From the NCBI GenBank assembly GCA_964016885.1, contig OZ024754.1:22134001-22198000 (forward strand): a stretch of 64,000 bases of DNA, in the 5' to 3' direction. The notes under the pieces were generated by a model. It was given only the letters and a program-made list of their open reading frames with translations, searched no databases and was not told the DNA's origin. Shown here in pieces: positions 1,265 through 64,000 of the stretch. The DNA comes from Eledone cirrhosa (taxonomy: Eukaryota). The position numbers and the translations under genes are program-made. How positions within the stretch are numbered: the stretch's first letter is position 1; each line of letters starts with the position of its first letter.

Positions 1265-1600
1265 AGGAGATTACGCAATAGCGATTGCCTAAATTCAAGG
1301 AATGAACATTTTTCACGTTGTCCACATGTCTGGAAACACCTCTTGTTAACTACAAAGCCCCGGATTGAATAACAACAACATTCTAATATTCTAATCAACT
1401 CAAACAATTTATTCCGGACATTCGCAGTTATCTCCCTTACACCTATCGACCGTGGATTTCCATTGCTTGGGAGAAGTGACCGTTTCTACATGTGTGCGTT
1501 CATACGGTTGTTTCTCCTTTTCCTGTTCCGTATGATCATTATCAGTCCGAGCTGAAGATCCGCATCAGGGGAAACAACTGTTGTGTTACTACTTCTATAT
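1265..1600 (+). mobile_element. Non-coding HHR-bearing mini-element (same family as 52778-53200), ribozyme truncated
   Basis: Colinear with 52778-53150 (gagattacgcaatag...cgcagttatctcccttacacc...ccgagctgaagatccgc). Confidence 0.7.
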
Positions 1601-1726
1601 ATACGCGTTAATAAGCATACAATTTTATAGATCTATATAAATATAGATAGCTTGAGAGATGGTACGTATATAATATATATATATATATAATATAAGATCA
1701 AAAGATGGTTAAAGGAGTTCCATGTA

Positions 1727-1793
1727 TTTTATTATGCGTATTTCAAAAACAAACATCATCATGCAATAATATTTGTGTTTTCATCAGATAAAA
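1727..1793 (-). ncRNA. Type I hammerhead ribozyme in P1 3' pLTR
   Basis: ttttat CTGATGA [aaacacaaatattatt...gatgatgtttgttttt] GAAA tacgca TA / ataaaa; stems I and II pair. Confidence 0.75.
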
Positions 1794-2817
1794 CAGGAGA
1801 ACATGATATGAAGGCTAAAAAACACTTGTGGATAGTGCAGTTTTAAATCAACATATGAAAAGTGGTTTTAGATTGATGTGTGATATTGGGAAAAATATTT
1901 TATTTAGAGAGGGGGTGGTGGAAAGGATGAAAAAGGGAAGGAGATGAGAGGGAGAGATGGGTGATAGAGAGAAAGAGATAGTTTTTATAACTGAGAGGAG
2001 ATATATTGTTTTACATAGAGAGGTTGAAAACCGTTGGAAGATAATGTATAAATTAAAAAATTTGAAAATTAACGAAGGGAGGATATGTGCGAGGAAAAAA
2101 TATTTTATTTAGGGAGGGGGGGGGATGAAAAAAGGGGGAGGAGATGAGAGTGAAGGTGGAGAGGGAGAGATGGGTGATAGAGAGAAAGAGATAGTTTTTA
2201 TAACTGAGAAAAAGATATATTGTTTTACATAGAGAGGTTGAGAACCGTTGGAAGATAATGTATAAATTAAAGGAATTTGAAAATTAACGAAGGGAATTTA
2301 TGTATGAAGATAGAGAGAAAAAATAATAATTGTGGATGAATATTCTAACGTCAAAAAAAGTGTATGTTGATAAGTATTGTGGCAATTTCAAAATTAACGA
2401 AGAGAAAAATTATTAAGGTTTGTGTGTAGAAGGATTTGAGAAAAATAATGTGAAGTTAAAGTTTGTATATTGAAGGAATTGATAATATATGCGAATAAAG
2501 AGTTAATATGTATTAAGAATGAGTTCGTTGATGGGGAGAAAAAAATAATAAATTAAGGATGAAATTGAGATTAAAAAGATTTATGATAGAGAGAACAAAT
2601 AATAATGATTGCGGATGAATATTCTAACGTCAAAAAAACAAATGTATATGTTATGAAGGATTTTACAAGGTGAAGATAGAATGAGGGTAATGAGTAAACA
2701 AGTATTATAGAGTGTATAATGCCCTTTAAAGTAGGGTAGGAAGATGGGTATATTTTAAAGAGGTGTATGTATATGTGCCTTTGAGAAAAGATTCTAAATT
2801 GATAAAGAATTGAATAT

Positions 2818-60938: not shown

Positions 60939-61208
60939 TGTGGGTATGGTGCGGCGTGCGGTGGCCGGAAGCTGGGGAGTGCTCGACCGGAAGAGTGCTT
61001 GACCGGAAGGGTGCTTGGCCGGAAGGGTGCTCGACCGGAAGGGCCAGCAGATCGGCCTCTCTCTAGTGGTGACCAGGAACGGTGTGGACGCGAGTTTTGG
61101 CAGCTCCTGGTGTTAATGAGTTGGACGCACGTGGAAGAGGAGAAACCAGCAATGGGATTTAGCGGTGCCTATGAAAAGCGGTAAGTGAGATAGTTTTTTC
61201 TAACCACA
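60939..61208 (+). repeat. 3' LTR
   Basis: See 5' LTR. Confidence 0.95.
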
Positions 61209-62220
61209 CACCACACAGGTAACCCATTTTTAAAACAAACTAAAACTCACACACCACACTCACAACAAATAACAAAAATAGTAACAAAACGTCCAACATA
61301 CCCCCTGCAAAACTATGACGATAATCCCAGAATCCACAGAGAAAACTATAGCCCTACTAAAAAAAACGAATGTCCCCCAACACAAGACAGGACTCGATCC
61401 GCAGATCACAACCCACACAAAACCTGTTCCAAAACCGTAGACCTCAACCCTCACAGAACCTGTTCCAAAATCGTCGATCTCAACCCACACAAAGGAACAA
61501 AATTTACAGCCCGGACCATCAACAAACTGAATCTCAATACGCCCGAAACTTCTATACAAGACCACACGACAACAACAGGGGAAATGCCATTAGATATAAT
61601 AATACCCAGGAAAAAACAATTCAGAAAAATCATTTTTTAGACCAAGGCTACCGGACCCACGACACCCGGTGGCACAAACCGATTTTGAAAATCCGAAAAT
61701 AATCAACCTTTCAAATACAAACTTCTCAGCCCAACAAATTAAAATTCTCTCCAAAGGACTGAAATTCACACCAACACCACAATACTCTAACCCCAATGAG
61801 ATAAATGACGATATCTCACACTTCTGTAGAAAATTACGTCTCACAGAGGAATTCTTTGACAAGGAGAATAACGACGTATCAATTGTACGGAATAAAAGCA
61901 GCTACAACCCAACAAAAGGTAGAAACAGACTTCTGGACAAATTTTGTGACTACATAGCAACTTTCCCATACCATGAACTACCGCAACCTAAACCCAAACC
62001 CAACACGAGTCGAAGGGAATGGGAGATTATCCATGAACTAAAAAACAATACTGACATTATAATTAAGGAAGCGGACAAGGGAAGTACTGTCGTTATTATG
62101 GATGCTGAACAGTATAAGAATTCTATGTTCTCTCTCTTACAATACACTAACTACTATGAAAGACTAAAAAACTACCAGCATTCAAAAACGATGACCAGAT
62201 TAAACACACACATACACACT
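61209..62220 (+). pseudogene. N-terminal part of a PLE RT of a different clade (P6), interrupted by the Gypsy element and cut at (CA)n
   Basis: IINLS...ILSKGLKFTPTP...FCRKLRL...IIIKEADKGSTVVIMD; probably continues at 56755-56992. Confidence 0.75.
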
Positions 62221-62664
62221 CACATACAGAATCATTTTCCTACACACACACACACACACACACACACACACACACACACACACACACACACACACACACA
62301 CACACACACACACACACACACACACACACACACACACCAGCACACAAATAAAAATACATATCTCTGCTTTCTTTATTTCAATAGAAAGTCTGAATTTTGA
62401 CACCTCAGCACATCAGCCATACTCACTGAACCAGAACAATTCTCCCCATCCCTTTTTTCTTGACCATTATCTTTTGTTTGGCACCAAATTCTCTAAATGA
62501 CTACAAAAAAAATTCCCAAATACGGGCGCGAAATTTAATATACTTACTTGAGCCACTTTTTTAAGTGAAAAGAAACCTCAAACACGAACTGGTGCGAATG
62601 TTGATGTGCTTATTCACGTGACTGCGTCAACCAACCAAATTTCACTCATATATGAAAAAAACAA

Positions 62665-64000
62665 TCGCTTTGTTCGTTTGTAAACAAACGGACAGCCTGA
62701 TTTACGCCGTACAGTGTTCAGGCAACCACGTCACCTTTTTGTTTAACACTGACACAGGAACGATGTACTAGTTTCAAGCTTGTTAGCTATCGTCAGCACC
62801 GTATACCTTTCTGCCAGATGGTTGAACGTTCGAAAGTATATACTTTCCTTATGAAAATTAACGGCTGAGCAGCCTAATTTGCATATCGAGTGAGTTCAGT
62901 CGGCCAGGCGCACCGAAAACGATAAATGGAATAGAATGAAACGAAATTTCATTTCTCACTCTTAGTACGGCACTTACATAAATGTAAGTATGTATGTATA
63001 CGTACATACATATATGTATACAGACGTACAGTAGCATGTATATATATATATATATATATATACAGGCACACATATATATATGCACGTATCAGTTTACCGA
63101 ACATTTATTATAATGTTCGCTTTGTTCGTTTGTAAACAAACGGACAGCCTGATTTACGCCGTACAGTGTTCAGGCAACCACGTCACCTTTTTGTTCAACA
63201 CTGACACAGGAACGATGTACTAGTTTCAAGCTTGTTAGCTATCGTCAGCACCGTATACCTTTCTGCCAGATGGTTGAACGTTCGAAAGTATATACTTTCC
63301 TTATGAAAATTAACGGCTGAGCAGCCTAATTTGCATATCGAGTGAGTTCAGTCGGCCAGGCGCACCGAAAACGATAAATGGAATAGAATGAAACGAAATT
63401 TCATTTCTCACTCTTAGTACGGCACTTACATAAATGTAAGTATGTATGTATACGTACATACATATATGTATACAGACATACAGTAGCATGTATATATATA
63501 TATATATATATATATATATATATATATATATATATATATATACATACAGGCACATATATATATATGCACGTATCAGTTTACCGAACATTTATTATAATGT
63601 TCGCTTTGTTCGTTTGTAAACAAACGGACAGCCTGATTTACGCCGTACAGTGTTCAGGCAACCACGTCACCTTTTTGTTCAACACTGACACAGGAACGAT
63701 GTACTAGTTTCAAGCTTGTTAGCTATCGTCAGCACCGTATACCTTTCTGCCAGATGGTTGAACGTTCGAAAGTATATACTTTCCTTATGAAAATTAACGG
63801 CTGAGCAGCCTAATTTGCATATCGAGTGAGTTCAGTCGGCCAGGCACACCGAAAACGATAAATGGAATAGAATGAAACGAAATTTCATTTCTCACTCTTA
63901 GTCCGGCACTTACATAAATGTAAGTATGTATGTATACGTACATACATATATGTATACAAACGTACAGTAGCATGTATATATATATATATATATATATATA
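62665..64000 (-). repeat. 452/484-bp tandem array, one HHR per unit (62761-62801, 63213-63253, 63697-63737)
   Basis: Units start at 62665, 63117, 63601; minus strand cggtg CTGACGA tagct-aaca-agctt GAAA ctag TA / catcg; ATTTGCAT in each unit. Confidence 0.92.

Follow-up and report, generated by a model that had tools for sequence, protein, structure and literature searches.

Two questions about mobile elements, namely, how Penelope-like elements (PLEs), the sister group of telomerase, come to be inserted in tandem and inverted form, and which enzyme serves the retrozymes of animals, have so far been addressed by co-occurrence and by one in vitro system. Both are raised by a stretch of 64,000 nucleotides from Eledone cirrhosa (assembly GCA_964016885.1, contig OZ024754.1, positions 22,134,001 to 22,198,000 of the forward strand), referred to below as the window. 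It is a mosaic of mobile elements separated by (TA)n runs and contains 34 hammerhead or hammerhead-like motifs of 16 families, part of them in repeats without an open reading frame (ORF). The analysis suggests that the motifs are type I hammerheads, or variants of them, of PLE ends and of retrozymes, and that Penelope enzymes copy the ORF-less retrozymes in trans, a reading to which a probability of about 0.68 is assigned. PLE enzymes likely move the retrozymes, because the ORF-less units share the end pattern of PLEs. A young intact Hydra-type family (P5) and young ORF-less ribozyme repeats carry the same countable footprint, which predicts exact start sites, and both questions thereby become testable at the bench.

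In most families, copies have two fixed 3' ends, a short one and a long one, both abutting (TA)n, and the end lengths are distributed in two peaks. The spacing between the ends is 69, 53, 88 and 116 nt in the ORF-less families A, B, I and N; 65, 58–60 and 96 nt in families D, J and C, assigned below to PLE ends; and about 90, 29 and 164 nt in the PLEs P1, P3 and P5. Fold-backs are joined head-to-head, with nine divergent and no convergent same-family pairs in the sampled genome tiles described below. Among 135 fold-backs of 11 families, a long and a short end were combined in 108, two short or two long ends in none, and 27 were unclassified. The original prediction, made from the letters of the window, that the fold-backs are a product of PLEs is supported. 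The ORF-less families A, B, I and N repeat it in 54 fold-backs (40 long plus short, 1 long plus long, 13 unclassified; in the tally of family N, the internal TATATATA was not counted as an end). Short and long ends swap sides freely between the arms.

The P5 insertion of the window (46519..50566) is composed of a minus arm with the short end (46519–49863, including a 5'-truncated ORF at 48031–49863) and a plus arm (49861–50566) with the long end, formed by the first 164 nt of the 5' untranslated region (UTR); cores CCGAAGA are located at 46604 (minus) and 50319 (plus), and the arms show 0% divergence over 544 bp. The P5 unit of 4199 bp has a predicted cut after position 4152, ends at 4199 and 164 and an ATG at 207. 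The predicted cut is located 47 nt before the short end, and the tail is represented by the first 164 nt after the pseudo-long terminal repeat (pLTR), where the 5' UTR begins. In two public runs, contigs pass from the P5 short end into TA; none crosses the junction of the window. The family A array (10228..13305, 466-bp unit, (TA)n on both sides) has the same architecture: 1.4 minus units with the short end are joined head-to-head to 5.2 plus units with the long end, and six canonical hammerheads have their cores at 10491 (minus), 11109, 11575, 12041, 12507 and 12973 (all plus). Copies reach about 1.4 units in P5 and five units in A, running through the predicted cut site, and the 5' junctions of A show no clustering at the cleavage site. 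Since copies of P5 and A exceed one unit and pass the cut site, the template would be a multimer left uncleaved or else a circle closed by ligation, between which the DNA cannot discriminate.

In the mechanism proposed here, the endonuclease would cut both strands of a (TA)n tract, and the freed 3' ends, probably paired with a short UA/AU stretch, would prime reverse transcription; the RNA template, multimeric or circular, would offer two internal start sites, one used per strand, and the two cDNAs would stop at variable points and then be joined 5'-to-5'. The predicted short and long start sites, in unit coordinates, are 4199 and 164 for P5, 425 and 28 for A, 174 and 227 for B, and 8 and 124 for N. 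Most copies would end within a few hundred bases, giving solo ribozyme ends and palindromes. Short ends are located on TA/AT stretches in most families, a pattern stated here without a statistic, which suggests base-paired priming at these ends. The closest experimental system is PAc, a Poseidon element of Anolis (Frangieh et al. 2024, PMC11167929). The Penelope protein, a predicted dimer, acts in vitro on both strands of AT-rich DNA, which it cuts and extends, and two internal starts of reverse transcription downstream of the hammerhead, the spacing of which equals the tail, were described. The PAc start is non-homologous to the target, whereas short ends here are located at TA/AT matching the target repeat; PAc has no strand preference, whereas the two arms here almost always begin at different sites. 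A more specific version, which we regard as tentative and rather doubtful, would have one dimer of reverse transcriptase (RT) and endonuclease hold a single circular RNA and use telomerase-like UA/AU pairing at the short and long starts; several viroid-sized ribozyme circles, having retained just these two signals, would parasitise Hydra enzymes, some autonomous families would have fixed weakened cores, and the genome, with about half a million hammerheads, would be the most hammerhead-dense on record.

Separation of retrozymes from truncated PLE ends was based on family searches in the genome, in which the best 40 of 1239–3411 candidates were scored (all 35 for A) and 20–30 loci were read per family. 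A Hydra-type ORF ends just upstream of D, in sense, at about half of 24 other loci; at one locus of C (L364), an ORF, a 1.5-kb UTR and the hammerhead follow each other uninterrupted; the sequence upstream of J and K translates into PLEs with a CX4CxxC linker and CCHH in the C-terminal endonuclease. Because ORF or PLE sequence leads into them from upstream, D, J, C and K are assigned to plain 5'-truncated PLE ends. Families A, B, I and N form closed head-to-tail ORF-less units of 466, 452–484, about 507 and 530 bp; no sense PLE ORF was found as their natural upstream sequence in the loci read, and only short weak matches were obtained against a library of 11 PLE-type ends. For family M, two pairs of matches, one at each of two other loci and known by coordinates only, are spaced 491 bp apart, and it is probably a further ORF-less head-to-tail unit. 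Units of A, B and I contain a canonical type I hammerhead, while N and M have the core without an adjacent stem I. A and B are homologous (72–74% in three blocks); as read from the sequence, paired changes set them apart in stem I (ATATTG/CAATAT versus ACGATG/CATCGT) and also in stem II; the fold of the A monomer has a z of −12.4. A search for RNA holders listed none for family B. By these features, A, B, I, N and probably M are non-LTR retrozymes with predicted cleavage and predicted circular RNA. The original prediction that the ORF-less units are not simple truncations was thus right for A, B, I and N, which close head-to-tail and bear the PLE end footprint, and wrong for D, J, C and K. Truncation accounts for about half of the motifs, not for every non-coding family: 17 of the 34 motifs belong to PLE 3' ends (15 traced, 2 by similarity), 15 to ORF-less units and 2 are untraced.

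The window copies of these units, besides the A array, are a partial B unit on the minus strand (13394..13827, core TTGACGA at 13734); a fold-back of family I (13856..14609, hammerhead 14032 on the minus strand); a plus-strand copy of N (19191..19755) with a hammerhead-like motif at 19627 and no canonical stem I; about two B units on the plus strand (54956..55780, cores 55052, with decayed stem III, and 55491); a fold-back of M (56192..56708, atypical motif 56436 on the plus strand); and a minus-strand B array (62665..64000, hammerheads 62796, 63248 and 63732) continuing past the window end.

Several points weigh against copying of the retrozymes by PLE enzymes in trans. The approximately 2 Mb read contained no PLE that could be the parent of A, B, I or N, and no helper was found; the loci represent the best 40 of up to 3411 candidates, and copies of B, I or N that are long and contain an ORF might have been missed among the rest. 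The end rule has exceptions at one locus of family I (L164) and one of P5 (L369, one among 17 loci). A locus in which an A array stands head-to-head with a P1 end (L092) was tried as proof of co-mobilisation through a retrozyme/PLE hybrid and failed the age test: the P1 arm differs by 2.8–3.4% from its kin, which have a median of 1.4% among themselves, while the A units differ by 0.5–1.1%, so the P1 arm is several times older and the structure represents two events. Of the four further mixed divergent pairs, two (L207 and L153) arose by insertion at an end or TA site that was already present. In the PAc system, ribozyme cleavage is dispensable for insertion in vitro (PMC11167929). Self-priming on antisense RNA was proposed for head-to-head inversions, and no cross-mobilisation between families was seen in a rotifer (Arkhipova 2013, PMC3846280). 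Eight of nine predicted frog retrozymes failed to cleave (Li et al. 2026, 10.64898/2026.07.22.740005).

All non-coding families could be leftovers of autonomous PLEs in cis, with A, B, I and N being pLTR pieces tandemised by local DNA amplification, an explanation considered unlikely. D, J, C, K and the long subfamily of another repeat, L, turned out to be truncations, A and B also occur in long satellite-like arrays, and local amplification from a PLE end has been described (Li et al. 2026, 10.64898/2026.07.22.740005). Family A, on the other hand, is present at about 35 dispersed loci that are 86–100% alike, and every one of them has the two fixed ends and junctions of its own; the sequence upstream of its hammerhead wraps round to the tail and does not lead into an ORF; and dispersed fold-backs from monomer to pentamer with variable junctions would be unlike products of unequal crossing over.

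A second alternative, a shade less probable than the first, accepts PLE enzymes and ascribes the fold-back to one priming event, after which the product would snap back or prime itself, for example, on antisense RNA, with an uncleaved linear multimer as template and a minor role for ribozymes. It agrees with the published self-priming model (PMC3846280), with the insertion of catalytically dead ribozyme mutants in vitro (PMC11167929) and with the family-wide non-canonical cores of P5 (41/41), P3 (20/20) and P2, but one priming alone would not give two distinct fixed outer ends, both at (TA)n and swapping sides, and canonical cores are kept in most copies of A, B and I. Mobilisation of retrozymes by enzymes of long interspersed nuclear elements (LINEs; RTE-, Dong/R4- or Tx1-like), with (TA)n as a merely tolerated shared niche, is very improbable: LINEs have been named as possible helpers (Cervera and de la Pena 2020, PMC7229834) and those of the window have long open frames, but they are located in (TAA)n and lack hammerheads, and the two-end head-to-head pattern is that of the PLE families here and was described as PLE-specific (PMC11167929).

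In favour of copying in trans, young autonomous copies are present in the genome: the P5 family has 68 scored matches at 98–100% identity, many of them with an 832-aa frame, and P1 has young relatives with 606-aa frames. The 832-aa P5 frame is a single ORF with the order RT, linker and C-terminal endonuclease, and the endonuclease motifs of P1–P3 likewise follow the RT. It contains RWR (RVRWRT), DKT (HADKTN), CNCx5Cx5C, CxxCxxE and CxH; CCHH and GxKF are absent. The RWK/DKT test was performed for the P5 family only, the window copies being 5'-truncated: in the aligned columns of 50 homologues, RWK and DKT are in the majority, with DKT in 46–50 of 50, and the columns of the linker and of CxxCxxE and CxH are conserved as well. 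The CxCx5Cx5C linker is intact in P1, P2, P4 and P5 and has a break in P3; CxxCxxE was found in P1, P2, P3 and P5, and CxH in all five, P1–P4 having the same endonuclease-side motifs as P5 wherever these are retained. Named close homologues of the Penelope protein include proteins of Argonauta, and two homologues have a precomputed PF01541; sequence searches of Pfam and PDB with P5 or its profile gave no match. By these motifs, P1–P5 are Hydra-type PLEs, with a likeness to Hydra-1_Obim judged by eye, and the window holds at least seven Hydra-type families. J gave a weak Pfam match to GIY-YIG (E 4.9e-4, under the cut-off). Judging from the linker and CCHH pattern, J and K are ends of Neptune/Nematis-type PLEs; K was first labelled Poseidon-like until its translation showed the CX4CxxC linker and CCHH. 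The candidate helpers accordingly span, by the same motifs, at least two PLE lineages.

The label 'Naiad-like', given to these elements in the original prediction, was rejected on domain order and motifs. Naiad elements have an N-terminal GIY-YIG endonuclease, CCHH, DKA and no canonical hammerhead (PMC8557442), whereas in P1–P5 the endonuclease is C-terminal and CCHH is absent, the P5 family has DKT, and canonical cores are present at the ends of P1 and P4 as well as of C and D; (TA)n preference, inverted structures, the tail and a Cys-rich motif before the endonuclease are shared. The marks of the Hydra clade are RT followed by a C-terminal endonuclease, RWK/DKT, a CxCX5C linker, no CCHH, hammerheads and (TA)n targets, and one Octopus family is given, Hydra-1_Obim of Octopus bimaculoides (Craig et al. 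2021, PMC8557442). The elements studied here resemble this clade in domain order, RWK-like and DKT motifs, CxCX5C, CxxC and CxH around E/N and the lack of CCHH, as well as in having a hammerhead close to the 3' end, (TA)n as target, an inverted 5' copy and a one-sided tail. They differ in the 4199-bp P5 unit with Asn-rich inserts, Hydra elements being generally shorter than 3 kb, which is a tendency and not diagnostic; in tails of 29–164 nt versus 30–40 nt; in non-canonical cores of several families; and in number, with seven or more Hydra-type families within a single window versus one given for Octopus.

In the window, P1 (1690..4829, minus) is represented by a frameshifted RT and endonuclease region (2817–4829) and a 3' UTR with a core at 1787, and ends at (TA)n. 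P2 (6739..10186, plus) is 5'-truncated, and its motif at 10008 (CTGATCA) is atypical and lacks a canonical stem I; P3 (15121..17326, minus), also 5'-truncated, has the core CAGAAGA at 15187. P4 (44290..45887, plus) is an endonuclease remnant with a 3' UTR and a hammerhead at 45762, and a P4-related 3' UTR copy (19860..21196, minus), 77–84% identical to 44882–45937, has a decayed core at 19981. Interpretation of the LINE cluster between these two as an insertion into a single P4 fold-back was not supported, since the arms differ by 9–16%. Family D is present as a decayed copy (1263..1600, plus, core 1552, 70% identical to 52776–53108), its family being traced to an ORF, and as a piece of a Hydra-type PLE that covers the last codons and the 3' UTR (52776..53221, plus, hammerhead 53079). 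Family C is a Hydra-type PLE 3' end with an inverted 96-nt tail (18040..18335, minus, hammerhead 18137). The CX4CxxC/CCHH type is represented by a fold-back of K (17391..18030, atypical cores 17660, minus, and 17817, plus) and two fold-backs of J: 45934..46418, with a hammerhead at 46164 (plus) and a 58-nt tail on one arm, and 50664..51271, with outward-pointing hammerheads at 50913 (minus) and 51079 (plus). Two fold-backs are of untraced origin, a C-like one (54098..54306, cores 54171, minus, and 54284, plus, cut short) and that of family H (54300..54810, cores CCGATGA 54352, minus, and 54592, plus).

The number of motifs was curated from a descriptor, looser scans, core lists and family homology, and the total of 34 agrees with about 35 in the original prediction. 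With a strict type I descriptor (score of at least 14), 20 motifs were found, versus a mean of 0.23 and a maximum of 2 in 30 local dinucleotide shuffles; another descriptor version gave 18 versus 0.08. The 14 remaining motifs are below the strict score and were included by the other three means; those of P2, K, N and M and those at 19981, 54284 and 55052 are atypical, truncated or decayed. A motif is present in the 3' ends of all five elements P1–P5, in sense with the ORF, as had been proposed. The LINE cluster (21200–44258) and the Gypsy element (56990–61210), in which no hammerhead had been noticed before, contain none at a score of 9 or above; a looser scan gave three weak LINE-cluster matches (5.7–12.8), inside the shuffle range. 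Rfam recognised Hammerhead_HH9 on five A units only (E 1.4e-5, under the gathering score). Isolated motifs folded as monomers with ViennaRNA mostly gave no three-way junction, which is expected from the short palindromic stem III, yet lends no support. Two look-alikes were left uncounted, a GAAAC hairpin without a core in family L (51833–52483) and the reverse complement of the J tail (CTGAAAA..GAAAC); also uncounted is a second weak hammerhead-like stretch in each A unit (CTGGAGA..GAAAG, score about 12, at 11161 and five equivalent places).

The density of motifs is ordinary for this genome and is no special property of the window. In 40 tiles of 10 kb taken at round-number positions of the 3.0-Gb genome, 73 motifs were found in 400 kb, versus 0.67 in shuffles, and a single array accounts for 16 of the 73; (TA)5 is located within 300 nt downstream of 59 motifs, versus 26% of random positions, in agreement with the proposed tie to (TA)n. 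Extrapolation from the tiles gives roughly 0.4–0.55 million motifs per genome; published counts, obtained with other descriptors, range from thousands to about 120,000 per genome (PMC7229834, PMC4209133).

Cores differ between families. Canonical cores were found at the ends of P1, P4, C and D and non-canonical ones in P2, P3 and P5, while CTGANGA is kept in 37 of 37 copies of A and 71 of 78 of B, and A, B and I are canonical in most copies. Family-wide non-canonical cores are CCGAAGA (P5, 41/41), CAGAAGA (P3, 20/20), CCGATGA (4/4) and CAGTTGAT (11/15), and CTGATCA is found in most of 20 P2 copies; in the window, non-canonical cores were noted at 46604, 50319, 15187, 10008, 17817 and 54592. 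The U4C change is reported to be slow but viable in a viroid (PMC3088659).

The ingredients of this interpretation are known already. The presence of hammerheads in PLE ends, their pairing on opposite strands and a circular template go back to a 2014 proposal (Cervera and de la Pena, PMC4209133) for minimal motifs that, as here, occur in many families per genome, are mostly solo, form opposite-strand pairs 100–700 bp apart and have a palindromic stem III suited to dimers; the tail of one inverted pLTR was reported in 2013 (PMC3846280). PLEs as helpers of retrozymes were proposed in 2020 (PMC7229834) and 2026 (10.64898/2026.07.22.740005). The metazoan non-LTR retrozymes of these two papers are similar to A, B, I and N in that their tandem units lack an ORF, measure a few hundred bases and contain a single type I hammerhead with a short palindromic stem III, and in their distribution from dispersed monomers to long arrays; the published case is built on co-occurrence and pLTR homology, whereas here it is an insertion footprint, and homology to a parent PLE was not found. 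The main text of a 2026 repeat annotation of Octopus vulgaris, in its accessible part, mentions neither ribozymes nor Hydra (PMC13282606). In the literature covered, which excludes subscription papers, neither the two-end footprint on retrozymes nor such a density was found; supplements of the 2026 preprint may contain more. It is also suggested that many 'unknown' or MITE-like (miniature inverted-repeat transposable element) palindromes in such genomes may be Penelope ends.

Families A and B also occur as multi-kilobase satellite-like arrays (L099, L101, L102 and L343), several of them with an internal head-to-head inversion, and a 311-bp hammerhead array of a family absent from the window (L321, G000:C9:15000001-15010000) has four minus and two plus units head-to-head. 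An isolated piece similar to the P5 tail and 5' UTR (80–86%) is located between TA runs at 14625–14790. At 61603–62200, a (CA)n run interrupts the 5' fragment of yet another PLE, which has GLKF and ADKG motifs and relatives upstream of J at two loci (L220, L222).

Family L (51833–52483) is a very abundant hairpin-rich element of 150–200 bp with two ends 80 nt apart and tight 5' junctions; its fold-backs are long plus short in 42 of 55. In most of the 24 copies that have the anchor, 5' ends are grouped at GTCC/AGAAATAG; the anchor is missing from 32 of 56 copies. Its interpretation as a fossil of ribozyme cleavage was rejected: longer relatives lead into 3' UTR-like sequence, a pattern search gave four matches, none of them a hammerhead, and the one long insert is a LINE piece.

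The cluster at 21200–44258 is a nest of LINEs in (TAA)n, including RT elements and APE-RT-zf elements identified by their Pfam domains, and one LINE has a 1204-aa open frame; the former are presumably Dong/R4-like and the latter, as we assume, Tx1-like. The Gypsy-type long terminal repeat element (56993–61208) has 274-bp repeats 96% alike. Another (TA)n-bounded repeat end, in which no motif was found, is present at 53290–53600 and 54880–54955 and also beside locus L133. A 171-aa frame at 970–1485, overlapped by the D copy, resembles a piece of a Helitron helicase and has no Pfam match. A tRNA-Ser-like sequence (5976–6048) inside a (TA)n-bounded repeat probably marks a tRNA-derived short interspersed nuclear element.

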